Below are positions 9,787 to 35,952 of a DNA stretch of 64,000 bases, piece after piece. Location of the stretch: sequence record MT939240.1. One strand, given 5' to 3'. The stretch's first letter is position 1; each line of letters starts with the position of its first letter. Source of the DNA: Enterococcus phage 9181. Both the position numbers and the translations under genes were made by a program. Under the pieces are notes generated by a model. The model was not told where the DNA came from and made no database searches. It was given only the letters and a program-made list of their open reading frames with translations.

Positions 9787-10323
9787 ATGCAAGAACGTTG
9801 GTGCGGAGTTTTAGGGTTGGAAAAATACTATGAAGTTTCCGACCGTGGGAGAATACGAACGGTCACTAGAAGAGACTCTCGTGGTCAGTTACGCCCCTCT
9901 AAATTTCTTAAGCCTTCTGGGAGATACTTGGCAACTACTTGTAGTATAGATGGAGGAAAACATTTCAGACTGTATGTACACAAAGAAGTATTGAGAGCCT
10001 TTTGCGGAGAAAGACCTGATGGAATGTTCATCAACCACATCAACGGTAATAAACATGATAACCGATTGGATAACCTTGAATATGTTACTCCTAAAGAGAA
10101 TAATGAACATGCTATGAGGAATGGTTTGACTAGTAAAAATTCCGTCGTAAAGATAACTCAACTAGATACAGGAATAATTTCACACCACCTATCAAAGAGA
10201 AAGGCATCCAAGTTTCTCAAAAAATACCCGTCCTATATAGCTGAAATATCCAGAGGATTGTACAAAAACACTAATCTAATAATAGAGGAGATACCATATG
10301 ACAATACACTGCGTTATATATAG
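9787..10323 (+). CDS. HNH homing endonuclease with N-terminal NUMOD4 motif (178 aa)
   Basis: NUMOD4 motif YEVSDRGRIRT, and HNH motif HINGNKHDNRLDNLEYVT. Confidence 0.8.
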   Translation: MQERWCGVLGLEKYYEVSDRGRIRTVTRRDSRGQLRPSKFLKPSGRYLATTCSIDGGKHFRLYVHKEVLRAFCGERPDGMFINHINGNKHDNRLDNLEYVTPKENNEHAMRNGLTSKNSVVKITQLDTGIISHHLSKRKASKFLKKYPSYIAEISRGLYKNTNLIIEEIPYDNTLRYI

Positions 10324-10759: not shown

Positions 10760-10839
10760 TCTTTTAAATGGAGGCTTGACAAAGCCTCTTTTTTATGCTA
10801 TATTATAACAGTAGATTAACAAGGGACGGGGATGAATTA

Positions 10840-14351: not shown

Positions 14352-14394
14352 CCAAGAAACCCTTGACAATTTCAGGGGTTTTTTGATATACTTA
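14352..14394 (+). promoter_or_regulatory. Terminator hairpin with embedded promoter (AACCC-TTGACAATTTCA-GGGGTT then T-run then TATACT)
   Basis: An inverted repeat flanks TTGACA. A T-run follows. A -10 TATACT lies 18 nt downstream of the -35. Confidence 0.45.
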
Positions 14395-14429: not shown

Positions 14430-14984
14430 ATGGCAAAAGAGAAAGCCCCTAAATTTAAAGAAATCGAATATTATTCAAGCATAGATGTATCAGTAAATCC
14501 ATTCGTTGAGATCGGTGATTTGATAGAAGATCATAACTGGGAGTTTGAATTAAACCGTGAGACAGGCGACTTCACAAAGGTTCCTACAAAGGTTCAGTAC
14601 CTACAATGTAAAGGGTGTGAGTCTTGCAAACGTATTAAAAAATTGGGTAAGGTTATCCATGATTGGAAGGTCGCTAAGATCATTACTAAACCTTTCGAAG
14701 AGTGGACTAGAAAAGAAGTCTTGTGGCTACTGTCACAGCGTTACTCATTACGTGACATGTCGTTGATTACAGAATATGCAAACGTTCCTACCTTTTTGGA
14801 GGACGTTAAAGATAAGTTTGACGGCGTTGATGGGCTGAAAGCAATCTTCTTTTACAACATTCCTATCAGCATTGCTAAGCATATTAAGCGTATAGATGAG
14901 GAGGTTTTTGACAAACTTAAAGAAGAGTACGATGAAGAGTATGTAAGCGAACCAATTAAATTCTCTGAAAAGGTGGCTAGATAA
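14430..14984 (+). CDS. Hypothetical protein (184 aa)
   Basis: RBS AAAGAGG. Confidence 0.55.
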   Translation: MAKEKAPKFKEIEYYSSIDVSVNPFVEIGDLIEDHNWEFELNRETGDFTKVPTKVQYLQCKGCESCKRIKKLGKVIHDWKVAKIITKPFEEWTRKEVLWLLSQRYSLRDMSLITEYANVPTFLEDVKDKFDGVDGLKAIFFYNIPISIAKHIKRIDEEVFDKLKEEYDEEYVSEPIKFSEKVAR

Positions 14985-17605
14985 TGCTTAAGGTTAACCT
15001 ATCACTTGGAGACGAGTCTAAAGTAGACCCTCATGAAGCGATTGCAAAGGCGACAAAAGCTAAACAAATACCAACTATCGAAGAATCATGGGAAAAGATT
15101 CTAGGAATGAAGAACTCTAAGAAAGACTTAGAACGCCTGAATACCGTTAAGGAGCAGATGGAACTAGGTAATTTAGGGCGTGAGGAAGACAAGTTACATA
15201 AGGCTTTCTCGAAAGCCGAAGCACTACGTCTTTATAAACGCTACCAAGAGTCCATGCGTGAACAACGCTTAAAGGAAATGTTCACTAAGGACTTAGATAA
15301 GTACCCATTACTAACAGACATTGACCTGATTAACGACTATGTATATAAGGCTACACACGCTGATGGTATTCCATTACTTAACGCCGATCATATGGTTTCT
15401 CTCGATACCGAGACGGTTGGTAATGACGGTGGTGTTGACAAGTACCGTGAAAAGATAGCAGGGTGGTCACTAACCTTTTACAAAAATGGTGTTGAATACA
15501 ATGGTTACATTCCAATTGAACACTATCAGGAAGTTGAACCAGAGGTGTGGGAACTAGACCCACGTTGTGTAGACTATGATAAAGCCATTGGAGCTCTTTC
15601 TAGCATCCTTATCTCAGGTGTGGATACAGTCTGGCACAACGCCACATTTGACTTGGGTTTAATCTATGCTTTAACAGGAGTTGAACCTAAAGGAACCGTT
15701 CATGACACGCTTATTATTATGCACTTATTGAAAGAAGACTTGATGTCGTACGCTTTGAAAACACTGGCAACACAGTACCTGAACATCCCATCAGACACCT
15801 TCTCTGAAATGTTTGGTAAGAACGCCAAGTCCGCATACATTCCACTAGATGCCTTCCGTTGGTACGCTTCTAAAGATACTTGGGTTGGTTACAAGCTATT
15901 AGAATGGCAAGTTAAAATACTTTCTAAACCTCAATTCAGCAATATATTGAAGGCTTATTTACACATTGAAGCACCATGTATTAAGACCACTTTCCACACC
16001 GAGCGAACAGGGTTCGTAATGGACATGGAAGAAGTAGAACGACAACACGAGGAAAGTGTAGAACGTATCGCTGAATTAGAAAAGCGTTTAGCAGATCGTT
16101 TTGGAGACGTTAACTTCGGTTCCCCAGCACAGTTACAAAAGATGCTTTACTTTGACAACGACTGGAGTCAATATGTTACCAAGGATCACAAGAGTATTTT
16201 AGATGGTCATGAAAGCTTTGATGAATGGGGTATTAGTAATAATGGTAAGTTCGCAATGACTAACTCAGGAAGCATTATACTTGACCCTGTAGTTGTTACT
16301 ACGAACGAAGCGCTTGACTACCAAGGTAAAATTACTACCAAGACACTTGTCAAGCCTAAAAATAGCCAGTTAAAACTATCTGCTGACTCAGACGCTTTAA
16401 AAGCTATTGCAAAACATGCCCCAGAGCTTAGGGACTTGCTTGAACTTAAGGACTTGACTAAGCATTTAACATCATTTGTAGAGAAGATTCCAACCATGGT
16501 TTCTCCTGATGGACGATTACATGGAGACTTTAAACAAAGTAGCACTGTAACTCTTCGATACACTGCAAGCAATCCTAATTTACAACAGCAACCATACAAG
16601 GCTCGCTTAATGTTTACGGCACCAGAAGGGCAACTTATCCTAAGTGCCGATTTCTCGCAACAAGAACCTCGTCTAGCCACTCATATGAGTAATTGTAAGG
16701 CGTTGGCAGAACTTTACCGAGACGCACGTGACTTGTACTCGGAGACAGCCTCTTCAATCTTTAACAAGCCTCTCGAAGAGTGTGGGGATGGCTCCATTTA
16801 CCGTAAGCAAACAAAAGTCGTTGTACTTGCCGTTTTATATGGAATGTCACACTTCACTCTAGCAGGTATCCTAGGCATTTCTAATGATGAAGGCAAAGAG
16901 TTGATAGACAACTTCTATAAGACGTATCCAGAGCTACATAAATGGATTAAGAACAACGAGAAGGAAGTAGCTAAGCAGAAGTACGTTGAGACACCTTGGG
17001 GTACTCGTAGACGTTTTACTGATGTTAACTTTAACCTTCCTAAGAAGCCTTGGGGAGCTATGACAGAAGAAGATCGAAGAGCACGTTCAAACATCAACAG
17101 AGCCCTTCGCCAAGCTACTAATGCAAAGGTTCAGACCGCCGCTGCTATGCAAACTAAACAAGTTATGGTGGCTGCTGATAATCTTTTAGAAGAGCTTAAT
17201 AAAGCACGTGGCAAAGAGGTATTCCAATTCCTCGCCTTGGTGCATGATGAGATTCTGTACCTTGTTCCAGAAGATGTCACCAAAGATGAGGTAGAGTCTA
17301 TTCGTGATGTAATGATAAATACCGTCAAACTGATTGTTCCATCTAAGACTGATATGGCTTTGGGTAAATGTTGGGGAACACTTCAAGAGATAGATTACAT
17401 TGACCAAGACGTTTACTTGGTAGGTAGCACAAAAGCCAACCAGAAGACTGAGTGGACAGAAGGTATTGGGGAAGTAGTTAGTTGGAAGAAACTTTCTAGC
17501 CACCAACAAGGAGCCGTTTACGTTGATGGTAATGACACTGGTCTACGCCTTTCAGAAAAGGAATGGGCAAACTTCATTTCAAAAGTTTATAGCAAGAAAA
17601 AATAA
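14984..17605 (+). CDS. DNA polymerase I (family A) with 3'-5' exonuclease domain (873 aa)
   Basis: Exo I motif SLDTETVG, Pol A motif B RKQTKVVVLAVLYGMS, and motif C LVHDEIL. Confidence 0.9.
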   Translation: MLKVNLSLGDESKVDPHEAIAKATKAKQIPTIEESWEKILGMKNSKKDLERLNTVKEQMELGNLGREEDKLHKAFSKAEALRLYKRYQESMREQRLKEMFTKDLDKYPLLTDIDLINDYVYKATHADGIPLLNADHMVSLDTETVGNDGGVDKYREKIAGWSLTFYKNGVEYNGYIPIEHYQEVEPEVWELDPRCVDYDKAIGALSSILISGVDTVWHNATFDLGLIYALTGVEPKGTVHDTLIIMHLLKEDLMSYALKTLATQYLNIPSDTFSEMFGKNAKSAYIPLDAFRWYASKDTWVGYKLLEWQVKILSKPQFSNILKAYLHIEAPCIKTTFHTERTGFVMDMEEVERQHEESVERIAELEKRLADRFGDVNFGSPAQLQKMLYFDNDWSQYVTKDHKSILDGHESFDEWGISNNGKFAMTNSGSIILDPVVVTTNEALDYQGKITTKTLVKPKNSQLKLSADSDALKAIAKHAPELRDLLELKDLTKHLTSFVEKIPTMVSPDGRLHGDFKQSSTVTLRYTASNPNLQQQPYKARLMFTAPEGQLILSADFSQQEPRLATHMSNCKALAELYRDARDLYSETASSIFNKPLEECGDGSIYRKQTKVVVLAVLYGMSHFTLAGILGISNDEGKELIDNFYKTYPELHKWIKNNEKEVAKQKYVETPWGTRRRFTDVNFNLPKKPWGAMTEEDRRARSNINRALRQATNAKVQTAAAMQTKQVMVAADNLLEELNKARGKEVFQFLALVHDEILYLVPEDVTKDEVESIRDVMINTVKLIVPSKTDMALGKCWGTLQEIDYIDQDVYLVGSTKANQKTEWTEGIGEVVSWKKLSSHQQGAVYVDGNDTGLRLSEKEWANFISKVYSKKK

Positions 17606-17670
17606 GGGGTTGACAATATACCCCTTCCCATGCTATATTAAATTAGTAATCAAAACTAAGGAGGTTTCAC

Positions 17671-17919
17671 ATGGATAGAGAAGAATTAGAAGACTTGATT
17701 GACAGTTTACAGGCACAGCTTGACGAGGCACAGGACGACCTAAACGACGTAGAGGACGAGCTTTACGAAGCTGAGGAAGCTTTAGAAGAAGCAGAAGAAG
17801 CTGTCCTACAAGCTGAGAATTGGAAGGACAACATCCTTGACACTATCGAAGACCTTGAACAGCAACTCGAAGATGCCCAAGGAGAACTTGATGACCTTGA
17901 GGAAGAGGAGGACGAATAG
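17671..17919 (+). CDS. Hyperacidic coiled-coil protein (82 aa, about 45% D/E)
   Basis: RBS AAGGAGG. Extreme acidic composition, for example ...DDLNDVEDELYEAEEALEEAEEA.... Confidence 0.6.
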   Translation: MDREELEDLIDSLQAQLDEAQDDLNDVEDELYEAEEALEEAEEAVLQAENWKDNILDTIEDLEQQLEDAQGELDDLEEEEDE

Positions 17920-18248
17920 TGAAGCCTGTATTCGAACCATGGAAAGACAGAATCATTATAGGATCAAACATCTATGGAGAGAAGCACCTAGCTTTCATCG
18001 GAGGTGTAAATTGGGATGAGGAGTTAGAAGAATTTGTATATACCACAGAAGACGATTCTAGTGCATTCACCGAATCATACCTAATAGAAGAAGGAATAGT
18101 CTTAGTTGATAGAAATTACGAAACCACTAACGACCTTAAGGAGAGAATTGACGAGCTTTTGATAGAAAACTCTAACAAGAGTCGTATCATCAGGAACCTA
18201 AAGACCCGTCTAATTGAAATTCAAAGTATTGCAAAAGCAGTTTTATAA
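17919..18248 (+). CDS. Hypothetical protein (109 aa)
   Basis: ATGA overlap with the upstream gene. Confidence 0.55.
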   Translation: MKPVFEPWKDRIIIGSNIYGEKHLAFIGGVNWDEELEEFVYTTEDDSSAFTESYLIEEGIVLVDRNYETTNDLKERIDELLIENSNKSRIIRNLKTRLIEIQSIAKAVL

Positions 18249-18270: not shown

Positions 18271-18801
18271 ATGGCAGTAAAGAAATCAGAGATTAAGAAC
18301 TTAGTACAAAACGAGTGGAACAAGAAAGTTAACGCACTTCGCAAAGACCGTAATGAGGCAACACACCGTCACGAAAGAGAACAACTAAAGCCATACGAAA
18401 CCTTATTCAAAGAGGTGTTTGAAGCTGAAAACAAATACACAGAAGCTCTTAATAAGGTTGCTGAGAAGTTAACCGAAGATGAGATTCGCATTTATGGATT
18501 CACTTATTTACGTTCTCCCCAATACGGCACAGACTTCGAACGCAACATGGAGAAGATAGTTCAAGACCTTTACAATGGAGCAATCAAAGGAACAGAAGCC
18601 GTTGCTCAACCGTACGAAGAAGAGATTAGCAAGATCAATGAAGCCTACCGAGGAGTTATGTCAAACGTGATCCAACTATCTCCTAAGAAAGGTTTAGACT
18701 ATATCATTAAGATGGGATTTGACGTTACTTCCATCACACCAACCACAGCAGAAGTTCCAATGGTGGTTGTCGATCCAGAAGCTCTTAAATTAGATAAATA
18801 G
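18271..18801 (+). CDS. Hypothetical protein (176 aa; start moved to ATG 18271)
   Basis: RBS GGAAGAGGG precedes ATG 18271. Confidence 0.5.
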   Translation: MAVKKSEIKNLVQNEWNKKVNALRKDRNEATHRHEREQLKPYETLFKEVFEAENKYTEALNKVAEKLTEDEIRIYGFTYLRSPQYGTDFERNMEKIVQDLYNGAIKGTEAVAQPYEEEISKINEAYRGVMSNVIQLSPKKGLDYIIKMGFDVTSITPTTAEVPMVVVDPEALKLDK

Positions 18802-18817
18802 TCAGGGGTATAACTTT

Positions 18818-18866
18818 GACACAAAGCCTTCTAATGCTTGACATTAGGGGCTTTTTGTGCTATAAT
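18818..18866 (+). promoter_or_regulatory. Terminator hairpin with embedded promoter carrying the conserved CTAATGCTTGACATTAG motif, followed by TATAAT
   Basis: Stem CTAATG/CATTAG around TTGA, flanked by GCC/GGC. T-run TTTTTGTGC follows. A -10 TATAAT follows. Confidence 0.5.
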
Positions 18867-19243: not shown

Positions 19244-20279
19244 GGGGCTAGCAGCCGTCACAGCACAAACAGGAGAGACTTATGAATACTCTCTCGAAGA
19301 TAAAATGGCACAAGTATTTACAGAGCAATTTGACAAGTTCTGTGAAAGAGGTATGGATACCGACGAAGAACTAACTAAATGGCTTTACATACAATACTTA
19401 GATGTACTGGGTATTAACCCACTTAAAGAAGTCCAAGACGAAATGGTATTCTTTAGAAGTTCCTCGACAGGATCGTGCCTACGTGAACAAACCATGAAAG
19501 TAATTGACTTTATGGAAGGTACTAAGAAGTCCGATCCAAGAGGTCACAAACAACCGCATCAAACAAGATGGACAGCCCTTGGTACAGCAGGCGGAGACGT
19601 GATGCAATTCTTTGTACTTCTTATGGAGAAACATTATGAGCGCCTTGTAGGAGAACCATTCGCATTCCGATTTGAACGTGATGAAGTAGGACATCCAATG
19701 TTTGAGCAATTCACCACAACTTACAAAGCATTTAAGAGTGGGAATATGCAGTGGGCTACAGGAGGTTCCGTAGATGGTATTATGGTATTCACTGACCCTG
19801 ATACAGGTAAAGAACATCGTGTAGGACTTGAGATTAAGTCTAAACAAACATCAGCAGCTAGAACTTCTTTATACTCAATGAAAGAGCCAGACAAGAAGCA
19901 CGTATGGCAAGTTAAGAACTACGCCATGTTACATGACTTGGAAAGCTACTTGATTGTCTACTTAAACTTCTCTCACAAGACATGGGAATACACCCCAGAA
20001 GACTACACTAAAACCCCAGACTTCCGAGTATTTGGTATTCACATTACAGAAGACGATAAAAAAGAGGTAACAGAACGTTTCTGGACAGCCGTTGAACACG
20101 CCCATGCAGGTACCTTCCCAGAGTTAGACCTTTCATCATGGACATTCAATGATTACAAAGTAGCTTGTGCCAAGAGTCTTACCTTAAAAGAGCTTGATCG
20201 CTTAGATAAGATTGCTGTTGGCAAGTTCCAAGAACAAGCATTGCAAGAGATTTATGACATCAGGGAGGCTTTCAGATAA
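19227..20279 (+). CDS. PD-(D/E)XK superfamily nuclease-like protein (350 aa). Candidate recombination exonuclease.
   Basis: D...ExK arrangement SVDGIMVF...GLEIKSK. RBS AGGGGGA. Confidence 0.45.
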   Translation: MKKPSKGLAAVTAQTGETYEYSLEDKMAQVFTEQFDKFCERGMDTDEELTKWLYIQYLDVLGINPLKEVQDEMVFFRSSSTGSCLREQTMKVIDFMEGTKKSDPRGHKQPHQTRWTALGTAGGDVMQFFVLLMEKHYERLVGEPFAFRFERDEVGHPMFEQFTTTYKAFKSGNMQWATGGSVDGIMVFTDPDTGKEHRVGLEIKSKQTSAARTSLYSMKEPDKKHVWQVKNYAMLHDLESYLIVYLNFSHKTWEYTPEDYTKTPDFRVFGIHITEDDKKEVTERFWTAVEHAHAGTFPELDLSSWTFNDYKVACAKSLTLKELDRLDKIAVGKFQEQALQEIYDIREAFR

Positions 20280-20608
20280 TGGAGAATAAATACTACAGAA
20301 CGCTAGTCATTCACGCCATCAAGAACGACTACGCAACCGAGTGGGAACTTTACTTAGACCTTGACCTAGAGGGTTACGACAGCCTTATGGTATATCTCAT
20401 GGATGCTGTTAACAACGCCCATGACGATGCTTATGAAAAGATTGTTGAACTGCCTGACATGACAGGCTGTGTTAAATACATTGATGCATCACTTATTACA
20501 GACTTTACACTTTCAGCAAACATTTCTAAAGAGGAAATGGAAGAAATGGTAGCAGACGCTTTAGGACTTGACGAATTTTATGACGACGAGGAGGAAGATT
20601 TATGGTAA
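20279..20608 (+). CDS. Acidic hypothetical protein (109 aa)
   Basis: Overlapping start. Acidic C-terminus. Confidence 0.5.
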   Translation: MENKYYRTLVIHAIKNDYATEWELYLDLDLEGYDSLMVYLMDAVNNAHDDAYEKIVELPDMTGCVKYIDASLITDFTLSANISKEEMEEMVADALGLDEFYDDEEEDLW

Positions 20609-21168
20609 GATATTTAGGACTTGATGTGAGCTCGGTTGCCACGGGTGTTGCGGTGGTGGACAGAGCCCCTGATGGCTCCCTTACCAAGGTAGTAACAGAC
20701 GTCATCACAACTTCCTCTAAGCAAGAGATTGGCAAGCGCCTAGTGCTCTTTGCAGAAACACTTCAAGGATTCTTCGATGAATATCAACCAGATTATGTGA
20801 TCCGTGAGGAAACCATTAACAACCGTGCTTCTAACGCCATCTTATTTAAGTTCTTAGGAGTGGCTCAATTCCTAGCATGCAACAATGGTCATCAAAAGAC
20901 TTACGAGTATTATCCTACAACTATCAAGAAGGAAGTCACAGGCGCTGGCAGAGCTTCTAAGGAGACTGTTGCCAAGTGTGCACAACAATACTTTAGAGAA
21001 GACTTATCGGAGCTCACAGACGACGAGACGGACGCTATTGCATCTATCTTAACACACCTTTCCAAAACATCCATCATAACAACTGTAGAAGATTATGACA
21101 ACCTACAGGAACACGACTCAGAACAACAACAACTTGTAGAGGGGTACGAGAATGGGACTATCCAATAG
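20602..21168 (+). CDS. RuvC-like Holliday junction resolvase (188 aa)
   Basis: N-terminal YLGLDVSSVATGVAVVD is typical of RuvC/YqgF folds. Confidence 0.65.
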   Translation: MVRYLGLDVSSVATGVAVVDRAPDGSLTKVVTDVITTSSKQEIGKRLVLFAETLQGFFDEYQPDYVIREETINNRASNAILFKFLGVAQFLACNNGHQKTYEYYPTTIKKEVTGAGRASKETVAKCAQQYFREDLSELTDDETDAIASILTHLSKTSIITTVEDYDNLQEHDSEQQQLVEGYENGTIQ

Positions 21169-21742
21169 CAAACAGATACGAATTGCAATTTCTGGAAAAA
21201 GCCGTTCAGGGAAAGATACTTTGGCTGATGCTATCAAGGCAGAATTTAAGCGTCAGGGAAAGACAGTTATCCCATTAGCTTTTGCAGATGGCATTAAAGA
21301 AATATATAAACAGAACTTCCGATATGTTAAAACCGACTGCAAACCTCGTGAAGCCTATATTACCATTGGAGAAGCCTTCCGTGCAGTAGATGAAAACGTG
21401 TGGGTTGAACGCCTTAAAGGACGTGTCGAAGAGAGCTACCAATGGGATGTAGTCATCGTGACAGACCTTCGCAGAAAGAACGAAGAGGAATACCTAAAGG
21501 ATGCTGGATTCACAACCATCTTAGTAGATTCCTCAGATGAGATTAGAATCGCCCGTGCCAAGGCTTTAGGAGAGCATTTAGAGGCTTCTAATGCAGGCGA
21601 TGATGAAGTAGATTTATTAACACCTGATATAACTATCCATAATGACAACGACGTTCGAGACTGGTCAGCACCTGCTCAAAGAATCGTAGAACAAATCAGA
21701 GAGGTGGCTACCATTAATGGATACCAACGAACAAAGAATTAA
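21152..21742 (+). CDS. Deoxynucleoside monophosphate kinase (T4 gp1-like P-loop kinase, 196 aa)
   Basis: P-loop ISGKSRSGKDTLAD resembles T4 dNMP kinase GVKRSGKDT. Confidence 0.6.
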   Translation: MGLSNSKQIRIAISGKSRSGKDTLADAIKAEFKRQGKTVIPLAFADGIKEIYKQNFRYVKTDCKPREAYITIGEAFRAVDENVWVERLKGRVEESYQWDVVIVTDLRRKNEEEYLKDAGFTTILVDSSDEIRIARAKALGEHLEASNAGDDEVDLLTPDITIHNDNDVRDWSAPAQRIVEQIREVATINGYQRTKN

Positions 21743-22448: not shown

Positions 22449-22455
22449 TCTAAAA

Positions 22456-22490
22456 ATCCCTTGACAAGTTCAGGGGGTTTTTGCTATACT
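22456..22490 (+). promoter_or_regulatory. Terminator hairpin with embedded promoter (CCC-TTGACAAGTTCA-GGGGG, then T-run, then TATACT)
   Basis: Same architecture as the element at 14352. Confidence 0.45.
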
Positions 22491-22961: not shown

Positions 22962-22979
22962 AGCGGAAAGGATTTGATT

Positions 22980-23780
22980 ATGATTTTAACATTGGCAGGC
23001 GTAATCGGAGTTGGTAAATCTTCGATGACACAATTATTAGCGGACTTATTAGACACCGAGGCGGTGTATGAGCCCGTTGATAACAATCCATTTTTAAAGA
23101 AATTCTATGAGGACAAAAGTAAATACGGGTTCTTATTCCAGATAGACATGCTATCTAAAAGGTTTGAAATGATTCAGACAGCCATGAGCGTTAACAATGG
23201 CATCTTGGATCGTTCCGTGTACGAGGATAGCATCTTCTTAGATCAACTCTATCAAGAAGGTCAAGTAACAGACCTTGAACAAGAGGTTTACCACAACCTA
23301 TTAAACCGCATGCTGAAAGAATTGGAGCCACTTCCTAAGAAGTCTCCAGACTTAATGATTGTTCTTAACTGCACGTTTGATGAAGAAATTAGACGTATCA
23401 ATTCACGAGCTAGAGAGTTTGAAAAGGTGGAAGAAGGCACTGAGCTATATGAGTACTTCAAACTCCATCACGAGAACTATCAGAAGTGGATTGAGAAAGA
23501 CTTGAACTTCCCCAAAATAGTCTTGGACGTCACTAATAAAGATTTTGTAAATAACCCCAAACACCAACTAGAATTGTTGACAACTATCTTGGTAAAGCTT
23601 AACGAAGTAGGTGCATTGACAACTTTAGACACGGTACGTAAACTATGTGAGATCAATTCAGTACCTTGGGACAAAGACAATGCCCAAGCTTATGCCATGT
23701 ACTTGTACAACAAACACGAAGGCAAGATGCCTTTCCACGAGCTTAGCCAATTCACTGACAACACTTCATTATATGAATAA
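22980..23780 (+). CDS. Deoxynucleoside kinase (dCK/dGK family, 266 aa)
   Basis: P-loop LAGVIGVGKSS, YEPV motif, and the dNK signature FYEDKSKYGFLFQ. Confidence 0.7.
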   Translation: MILTLAGVIGVGKSSMTQLLADLLDTEAVYEPVDNNPFLKKFYEDKSKYGFLFQIDMLSKRFEMIQTAMSVNNGILDRSVYEDSIFLDQLYQEGQVTDLEQEVYHNLLNRMLKELEPLPKKSPDLMIVLNCTFDEEIRRINSRAREFEKVEEGTELYEYFKLHHENYQKWIEKDLNFPKIVLDVTNKDFVNNPKHQLELLTTILVKLNEVGALTTLDTVRKLCEINSVPWDKDNAQAYAMYLYNKHEGKMPFHELSQFTDNTSLYE

Positions 23781-23836: not shown

Positions 23837-24568
23837 TTGGAAAACATTACTAAACTGTTCACTATCAACTACTACAAAAAAGGTCTATCAGGGTGGTCGA
23901 AATCCTCCTACACATTATTAACGATTGGCTTAATTATCCAAGCATTTATCGGATTCGCTTTACCACTTGTTCAAGGTCAGCCAATCACTCTCACAGGAGT
24001 TACCGCCACTATTGCAGGGATGATAGGGTTCACTTGTACACTTGCTATTACTAACGAGCGCTCCATTAATGGTATCCTAGGGTTTATCTCAGCACTTCTT
24101 TTAATTGGTGTTGCCACAACTACAGGAAACTATTCAGACATTATTATGCAAGGTGCATACATTATTCTATTAGACATTCCAATTATCTTCTCCAAGCGTT
24201 GGAACAATGGATTAGAACCACGTAAGATGAATGTTAAGAACATGTTCGGAACAGTCGCTTTAATGATCTTATTCTTCATCGGACTTTATCTACTTGATAC
24301 AGTTATCCTACACTCCCCACAAGCTTTACTAGATGCTTCAAGCGCTATGATCGGTTTAGTCGGAGCCGTCTTATGTGTTCGAGGATTCCGTGCTCAATAC
24401 TACTTCTGGACTTTTCAAGGTCTTATGTCAGTAGCGTTATGGATTCAAACAGCAATGAATGGTCACGCCGTTTGGGTTCTTATGGTAACTTACATGTTGT
24501 ACCTAGGAAACGACTTGGTTGCATTCTTAGACTCAGGTTGGTTCAAAAAGAATAAAGCAAAAGCTTAA
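23837..24568 (+). CDS. PnuC-family (Pnu) nucleoside/nicotinamide-riboside transporter (243 aa, TTG start)
   Basis: Seven to eight predicted TM helices. The C-terminal LYLGNDLVAFLDSGW resembles the PnuC conserved ND...W segment. Confidence 0.5.
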   Translation: MENITKLFTINYYKKGLSGWSKSSYTLLTIGLIIQAFIGFALPLVQGQPITLTGVTATIAGMIGFTCTLAITNERSINGILGFISALLLIGVATTTGNYSDIIMQGAYIILLDIPIIFSKRWNNGLEPRKMNVKNMFGTVALMILFFIGLYLLDTVILHSPQALLDASSAMIGLVGAVLCVRGFRAQYYFWTFQGLMSVALWIQTAMNGHAVWVLMVTYMLYLGNDLVAFLDSGWFKKNKAKA

Positions 24569-35802: not shown

Positions 35803-35952
35803 TTAAACCTCTTCGTAGTCCCACCAAATGACATCCTCATCATCTTCTAGTTGTTCACAAAGAGTTACTAATTCTTCTCGGCTAGCAACAAGTCTTTTTA
35901 GAACAACTCCATCATGTAGCTCAATAGTAAACTCAAAAAATTCTTCTTCCAT
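35803..35952 (-). CDS. Small acidic protein (49 aa)
   Basis: AGGAGG RBS. Translated by hand. Confidence 0.4.
   Translation of the reverse strand: MEEEFFEFTIELHDGVVLKRLVASREELVTLCEQLEDDEDVIWWDYEEV

Follow-up and report, generated by a model that had tools for sequence, protein, structure and literature searches.

Why does Enterococcus phage 9181 carry, directly behind its DNA polymerase gene, a short gene for an 82-aa protein in which almost every second residue is acidic? We analyzed this gene within a 64,000-nucleotide stretch of the phage (sequence record MT939240.1), referred to here as the window; the features discussed are collected in Table 1. The original prediction, made from the sequence alone, was that the protein mimics DNA and counteracts restriction in the manner of Ocr and Arn-like proteins, inhibiting type I restriction-modification (R-M), BREX or other DNA-binding defense proteins.

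Table 1. Coordinates of the acidic gene, its neighbors and the associated expression signals in the window
Feature	Position	Strand	Description	Basis
Hairpin AAGGGG-(TTGACAATATA)-CCCCTT	17604-17626	+	5' arm shares bases with the polymerase stop codon; -35 hexamer in the loop	Sequence
Putative sigma-70-type promoter	17610-17639	+	TTGACA, 18-nt spacer, TGcTATATT (extended -10)	Consensus match
Shine-Dalgarno AAGGAGG	17658-17664	+	6 nt before the ATG of the acidic gene	
Gene of hyperacidic, predicted coiled-coil protein	17671-17919	+	ATG to TAG; 82 aa, net charge ~-36	ORF translation and composition
109-aa gene	17919-18248	+	GTG start overlaps the TAG stop of the acidic gene by one base, G (ATAGTG)	
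176-aa phrog_1618 protein gene	18271-18801	+	Third gene of the unit	phrog_1618, E = 2e-12
Terminator-like hairpin and T-run	18828-18866	+	Hairpin at 18828-18850; overlaps a promoter at 18838-18866 (12/12 matches)	
Second acidic protein	20279-20608	+	109 aa, 27% Asp+Glu; between Cas4-like nuclease and RuvC	

Composition and predicted structure of the acidic protein

The product of the gene, MDREELEDLIDSLQAQLDEAQDDLNDVEDELYEAEEALEEAEEAVLQAENWKDNILDTIEDLEQQLEDAQGELDDLEEEEDE, contains 23 Glu and 15 Asp (38/82 residues, 46.3%) and only two basic residues, R3 and K52, in good agreement with the predicted share of about 45% Asp+Glu and near lack of basic residues. With a net charge of ~-36 and a pI of ~4, it ranks first in acidity among the 356 window ORFs of 40 aa or more. 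Next in acidity is a minus-strand ORF (35803-35952) that encodes 49 aa with 35% Asp+Glu (MEEEFFEFTIELHDGVVLKRLVASREELVTLCEQLEDDEDVIWWDYEEV).

The continuous heptad pattern that had been described extends over the entire chain, in a single register without a stutter. Position a reads R I L L L L V K I L L E and position d reads L L A V A A A I L A L, so that hydrophobic residues or Ala occupy 9 of 12 a positions and all 11 d positions, and the acidic share at the b, c and f positions reaches 58-75%. Structure prediction, one of the checks originally proposed for this protein, gave one continuous helix over residues 3-81 with a mean pLDDT of 96 (AlphaFold2, single sequence, single chain). In an assumed parallel homodimer, 4-6 of the g-e' pairs would be repulsive and 0-1 attractive. 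With H at 0.374 against a boundary of 0.571, the free chain falls far into the disordered region of the charge-hydropathy plot, which means that a stable DNA-like rod is not assured.

The chain also contains an internal repeat, residues 3-30 aligning with residues 52-79 at an offset of exactly seven heptads. The alignment score was 66, against 38 +/- 7 in composition shuffles, and was matched by 1 of 500 shuffles. At the DNA level the gene shows a 21-nt periodicity between 17709 and 17788, which suggests that it probably grew through duplication of heptads. We considered an intrachain helical hairpin formed by the two repeats and dropped it, since the AlphaFold2 helix is continuous and no member of the family has a central Gly or Pro.

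Conservation of the gene

We compared the acidic gene with its ortholog in the Enterococcus hirae sewage phage EH802P1 and found 13 synonymous and 8 non-synonymous differences, corresponding to a dN/dS of 0.11; the six resulting amino-acid changes are all conservative. EH802P1 and the sewage phages EH802P2, EH93P1 and EH93P2 share 93% DNA identity with the window over a 5.6-kb stretch around the gene. Four contigs from public sequencing runs, of which three measure 68-71 kb, encode an identical 82-aa protein, and gene callers reported the gene independently on several assemblies.

Divergent orthologs were found by synteny, by tracing homologs of the neighboring 176-aa gene and reading the contigs that carry them. 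In every case the same slot held a hyperacidic ORF of 82-88 aa, including orthologs with 44-49% identity to the window protein in three lineages (L011, L014 and L015). Across six aligned members, Asp+Glu make up 46-50% of residues, the net charge ranges from -36 to -43, and hydrophobic residues fill 78% of a positions and 93% of d positions. Ala is invariant at d positions 34, 41, 48 and 69, and both termini are conserved (N-terminal MxREELE and C-terminal DAxGELxDLE motifs). Residue identity drops to its lowest values at the most exposed positions (0.53 at b and 0.60 at f), yet both remain acidic. With surface residues drifting and the seam and charge retained, what selection seems to maintain is the core of the helix, the two termini and the negative charge of the protein as a whole, and not a specific surface.

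The family diverges in step with its surroundings. Relatives that carry it have neighboring proteins 47-61% identical to those of the window; with L014 as the reference, the identities are 48% (acidic protein), 47% (176-aa protein), 49% (upstream 184-aa protein) and 61% (polymerase). Further afield, the window polymerase is 50-55% identical to those of Saphexavirus (SAP6, phi47) and EG103P phages.

An ORF that is an orphan in every direct sequence search and has a low-complexity composition might be suspected of being spurious, or a non-functional GA-rich spacer. That reading is hardly conceivable here and can be regarded as effectively refuted by the sequence comparisons: besides the low dN/dS and the independent gene calls, the promoter and Shine-Dalgarno sequence are kept in relatives, and frame, length, heptad register and termini are all retained at 44-49% identity. 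By these measures the acidic gene is real and represents a conserved, narrowly distributed and uncharacterized family.

The same comparisons bear on a second reading, in which the protein is a disordered polyanion that forms no rod and instead sequesters cations or polyamines, or binds HU and ribosomal proteins non-specifically, much as prothymosin-alpha does. Its position in the charge-hydropathy plot and the retention of charge without surface identity are what such a protein would be expected to show. A purely disordered polyanion would, however, need no hydrophobic register, so that the strictly conserved a/d seam with its four invariant d-position Ala, together with the conserved termini at both ends and the confidently predicted helix, makes this reading improbable.

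Sequence, profile and structure searches

Direct searches with the protein returned almost nothing beyond its close relatives. A word-indexed search against 5.8 billion proteins gave no match, and a full phmmer search against 1.84 billion representative proteins gave only a 42-aa chimeric fragment (P0001) and no relative. Among 50,697 phage records, tblastn found the four 93%-identical E. hirae phages and nothing else. A blastn search in distant mode matched only promoter-like DNA. Scans of IMG/VR and metagenomes by protein, by alignment and by the motifs MDREELE[DE] and DA[QE]GEL[DE]D recovered only an already-known contig. A profile built from the six members had no match and also missed its own members. 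Because the composition bias makes such searches insensitive, the absence of matches is weak evidence of absence. Hyperacidic proteins of this kind are invisible to composition-corrected sequence searches, and synteny is needed to find them.

Searches against curated families were similarly uninformative. No Pfam, PHROG or NCBIfam family scored above its cut-off for the window protein, the sub-threshold matches being generic coiled coils such as Laminin_II, SMC and BRE1, and a Pfam scan of all six members gave only generic coiled-coil families below gathering scores. Neither the window protein nor the six members matched a profile of the Ocr, ArdA, Arn or Gam families above the curated threshold. 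In the PDB, phmmer found only myosin, SMC, keratin and designed repeat proteins, all at E >= 0.1, and Foldseek found 0 matches to the single-helix model, as expected for one helix. One family of unassigned function, phrog_5328, matched the L015 ortholog at E = 6.9e-8 (residues 2-79 against profile positions 3-80 of 101), a match that may be compositional; its E-value against the window protein was 0.009, and the L011 and L014 orthologs had no match to it. A tblastn search with the L015 ortholog for phrog_5328 members returned nothing owing to low-complexity masking.

Gene neighborhood and expression signals

Between the stop codon of the DNA polymerase gene (14984-17605; family A, 873 aa) and the start of the acidic gene lie 65 nt, which confirms the placement of the acidic gene just behind the polymerase. 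The polymerase gene closes an upstream series encoding a primase, RNA ligase, thioredoxin-like protein, DnaC-like loader and DnaB-like helicase, and the genes further downstream encode an HNH endonuclease, a Cas4-like nuclease (phrog_1706), an acidic-tailed protein, RuvC and nucleotide kinases. The acidic gene is thus located at the junction of replication and recombination genes and not at the leading or first-expressed end.

The polymerase gene is intact in the window, and in L011 (943-4622) and L012 an HNH endonuclease gene splits it into 530-aa and 332-aa parts. In L013 (1527-4335) the polymerase has 764 aa and is followed by an overlapping HNH gene, and in L016 it also has 764 aa, with no HNH gene directly after it. 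At least three free-standing HNH genes are present in the window (at 9787, 18896 and 28090). Taken together, these arrangements point to homing-endonuclease traffic in and around the polymerase gene. A glycosyltransferase-like protein (phrog_12231) is encoded at 14430-14984, just before the polymerase, and a dNMP kinase, a thymidylate-kinase-like protein and a PnuC-like NMN transporter at 21152-21742, 22974-23780 and 23837-24568, respectively. These genes hint at modified DNA or nucleotide salvage, which would bear on the host restriction systems that matter to the phage. The second acidic protein that had been pointed out downstream does exist, and it has an acidic C-terminal tail that ends in an invariant Trp in all relatives (DDEEEDLW, DEEEDEDEW, EEEDDGEW); the dN/dS of its gene is 0.24. 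Acidic tails that end in an aromatic residue and serve to recruit partner proteins are found on SSB and T7 gp2.5, and this tail resembles them.

A putative sigma-70-type promoter of near-consensus sequence precedes a three-gene unit that opens with the acidic gene; the promoter matches 11 of 12 consensus positions plus the TG and is kept in relatives. Six promoter sites of this type lie on the plus strand between 8000 and 27000, all of them intergenic; when the whole window was scanned by regex, nine were found, again on the plus strand only. The hairpin upstream of the gene has no T-run after it and is probably a weak terminator or none; its stem and layout are kept upstream of orthologs at six other loci, including those with 44-49% identical proteins. 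The ribosome-binding site is as strong as had been claimed, and its GGAGG core is kept at all orthologous loci. At the other end of the unit, the hairpin and T-run behind the phrog_1618 gene likely mark its 3' end.

Both of these hairpins belong to a recurring arrangement. Terminator-promoter composites are found at 10770-10804, 14355-14392, 17604-17639, 18828-18866 and 22453-22490, all intergenic and on the plus strand, in which a G+C-rich hairpin carries TTGACA (-35) in its loop or 3' arm and is followed by a TG-extended -10. Their spacers carry a T-run except at 17604, the composite whose layout recurs in the divergent relatives. Further consensus promoters are located at 1307, 24613, 29660 and 55908.

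Co-transcribed genes and a possible role within the phage

The base shared between the stop of the acidic gene and the start of the 109-aa gene indicates that the two are translationally coupled. In L015 the corresponding gene, which encodes a 131-aa homolog, overlaps the acidic gene by 8 nt, and in L011 and L014 it is missing. The 109-aa protein is an orphan whose N-terminal part is globular and whose C-terminal helix has many basic residues. It is the fastest-evolving protein of the block, with 73% amino-acid identity to EH802P1 and a dN/dS of 0.29, compared with 92-96% identity for the products of the flanking genes. A Pfam scan of the protein gave only a sub-threshold match to NucS_C (E = 0.009; cut-off 24 bits).

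The 176-aa phrog_1618 protein is predicted to be all-helical (AlphaFold2, mean pLDDT 87), with a 65-residue N-terminal helix rich in basic residues and conserved Lys/Arg at K4, K5, K9, K19, R24 and K25. Its invariant C-terminal peptide, VPMVVVDPEALKL, is predicted to be disordered and looks like a docking motif. The model gave no informative structural match in the PDB or BFVD. The BFVD entry A0A7L7SMH9 is 100% identical to the protein, which means that a phage with the identical protein is already represented in BFVD/UniProt. In every relative found, the acidic gene lies between the polymerase gene and the phrog_1618 gene, with the 109-aa gene sometimes intervening. The temperate phage phiFL4A encodes a 26%-identical homolog, gp20, between a gp2.5-like SSB and a family A polymerase.

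This constant company marks the acidic gene as a conserved core component, which, like its translational coupling and its rate of divergence, fits a function within the phage as well as one against the host. The main alternative is that the acidic protein does not act on the host at all and serves the phage's own replication proteins as a partner, regulator or chaperone. Its helix would bind the basic-rich helices of the 109-aa and/or 176-aa proteins, or a basic patch on the polymerase, either as the subunit of a hetero-coiled-coil or as a charge-neutralizing chaperone controlling DNA binding. In addition to the unbroken adjacency to the phrog_1618 gene, this alternative draws on the equal divergence of the two proteins (48% vs 47% identity), the conserved N-terminal Lys/Arg of the 176-aa protein, and the proximity of phrog_1618 to a family A polymerase in phiFL4A also. 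The stop/start overlap with the 109-aa gene in two lineages suggests coupled, probably equimolar synthesis, and the lack of attractive g-e' pairs for self-association is as found in obligate heterodimer zippers. However, the phiFL4A homolog has no acidic partner gene and L011 and L014 have no 109-aa gene, so that neither neighbor strictly needs, or is needed by, the acidic protein. Neither is basic enough for a charge of -36 (the N-terminal 41 residues of the 176-aa protein carry a net charge of ~+5, far short of neutralizing it), and the free drift of acidic surface residues would be unusual for a specific obligate interface. We therefore consider a role within the phage's replication machinery rather unlikely, on balance. 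Were the protein nevertheless a replication subunit or regulator, a role would be assigned to the uncharacterized phrog_1618 module beside family A polymerases.

A proposed coiled-coil decoy of DNA

The reading that we prefer, with confidence that stays short of even, is that the acidic protein acts as a coiled-coil mimic of DNA. In this model two chains would pair through the Leu/Ile/Val/Ala seam at the a and d positions, forming a rod ~117 Å long and ~20 Å wide, about as wide as double-stranded DNA. Nearly all of its outward b, c and f positions are Asp or Glu, so that its charge per unit length would be that of B-form DNA. If two-stranded pairing is assumed, the six members would carry -72 to -86 charges per dimer over ~117-126 Å, or -0.61 to -0.68 e/Å (-0.62 for the window protein), compared with -0.59 for B-DNA; a dimer length of ~117 Å equals ~35 bp. 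The rod could then serve as a competitive decoy that fills the DNA-binding surface of a DNA-binding protein. Since like charges disfavor both a free helix and a free homodimer, folding would probably be coupled to binding a basic partner surface or counter-ions. Our preference for the decoy is based on the conservation of the family, the match in charge density, the precedent of T7 gp5.9 and the position behind the polymerase.

What might such a decoy bind? It would be expressed from a host-type promoter, at the head of a three-gene unit in the replication/recombination module, and by this position the most likely class of target would be a host nuclease acting on dsDNA ends or on foreign DNA. 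Candidates include RexAB/AddAB, by comparison with RecBCD for T7 gp5.9 and lambda Gam, or a system of the R-M/BREX type. A RexAB/AddAB-type dsDNA-end nuclease is no less likely to be the target than type I R-M or BREX, which had been proposed by analogy.

The narrower form of the original prediction, an Ocr/Arn-like anti-restriction protein that blocks type I R-M and/or BREX, shares the charge and shape arguments made for the decoy, and one DNA mimic often inhibits several defense systems (bioRxiv 10.1101/2025.06.06.658234). The protein has no match to the Ocr, ArdA or Arn families, however, and its gene lies mid-module and is not leading or first-expressed, a position that a gp5.9- or Gam-like role, or one internal to the phage, fits at least as well. 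Moreover, the glycosyltransferase-like gene and the several nucleotide kinases suggest that DNA modification may already blunt classical R-M. The anti-restriction version thus seems a quite unlikely one. The broader idea of a DNA mimic is a reasonable one, favored by the small size, the hyperacidity, the predicted helix, the charge density calculated for a dimer, the conserved charge and the gp5.9 precedent; homology to Ocr or Arn was not found.

If the protein is indeed a decoy, it could show which enterococcal nuclease or defense limits these ~70-kb phages, which bears on enterococcal phage therapy. Its 82-aa, one-helix architecture would also offer a scaffold for engineered inhibitors of DNA-binding proteins.

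Comparison with known systems

Acidic zippers that need a basic partner, such as the E-coil of designed E-coil/K-coil pairs and the Fos leucine zipper, resemble the acidic protein in their heptad seam, acidic e and g positions and essentially complete lack of attractive g-e' self-pairs. Unlike these zippers, the acidic protein is also acidic at b, c and f, and no sufficiently basic partner helix was identified for it.

Ocr and ArdA are dimeric rods whose carboxylates imitate DNA phosphates. T7 Ocr (gp0.3) and ArdA are small and strongly acidic and, if a dimer is assumed for the acidic protein, have a comparable charge per length. Their folds are a helical bundle or multi-domain, in contrast to the single-helix coiled coil predicted here. 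The ocr gene is also the first to enter and be expressed, whereas the acidic gene sits mid-module. Acidic residues make up ~29% of Ocr (PMC11322646).

A further comparison is with the enterococcal phage protein TifA (phi47 orf65), an inhibitor of type IV restriction (PMC11322646). The 65th CDS of phi47 (UOX39270.1; ON086985.1 37068-37475; 8852-9259 in L009) encodes 135 aa with Leu32 and 21.5% acidic residues and lies two genes downstream of the polymerase. By its ordinal position, Leu32 and acidity this CDS fits TifA/orf65, which would mean that the slot behind the polymerase can hold anti-defense genes. TifA thus shares with the acidic protein its acidity, a related enterococcal phage lineage (polymerase ~51% identical) and, if the assignment is correct, the post-polymerase slot. 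At 135 aa, SH3-like and ~21% acidic, TifA is otherwise a different protein, and its authors do not consider it a DNA mimic (PMC11322646). No homolog of TifA was found in the window.

By mimicry, lambda Gam inhibits the host nuclease that acts on dsDNA ends (PMC9836394). This acidic, helical protein is dimeric and is encoded beside phage recombination genes, a setting comparable to the module of the acidic gene. Gam differs in having a long N-terminal helix and a dimerization domain and in being much less acidic, and there is no match in sequence or family between the two.

The closest parallel is T7 gp5.9, a small acidic protein that forms a parallel coiled-coil dimer, blocks RecBCD and MukBEF by mimicking DNA and is the only natural coiled-coil DNA mimic described (PMC9836394, PMC7617805). 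Like gp5.9 (PDB 8B1R), the acidic protein is small, acidic and, by prediction, helical and a coiled coil, and the mechanism proposed for it, competitive mimicry of DNA, is that of gp5.9. The loci are also alike: the gp5.9 gene lies between gene 5 (polymerase) and gene 6 (exonuclease), and in the window a family A polymerase gene is followed by the acidic gene and, further downstream, by those of the Cas4-like nuclease and RuvC. The two proteins differ in scale, gp5.9 having 52 aa, 25% Asp+Glu, a net charge of -8 and an extra short beta element, compared with 82 aa, 46%, -36 and a predicted helix throughout. They have no detectable sequence similarity (BLASTP aligned 8 residues, E = 1.5). The hosts differ as well: the phage studied here infects a Gram-positive bacterium, which has RexAB/AddAB in place of RecBCD, and the specificity described for gp5.9 is for RecBCD and not for AddAB.

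We raise, more speculatively than the decoy itself, the possibility that, after gp5.9, this family provides a second natural case of a coiled-coil DNA mimic, and the first in a phage of Gram-positive bacteria. As a minimal single helix, the protein would carry the charge density of B-DNA over ~35 bp, fold only on its target, disable a host DNA-end nuclease or defense complex (RexAB/AddAB, SMC/Wadjet-like or R-M/BREX) and share no ancestry with known mimics. In that case the coiled-coil solution of T7 gp5.9 would have arisen independently in Gram-positive phages, in a far more charged and minimal form.
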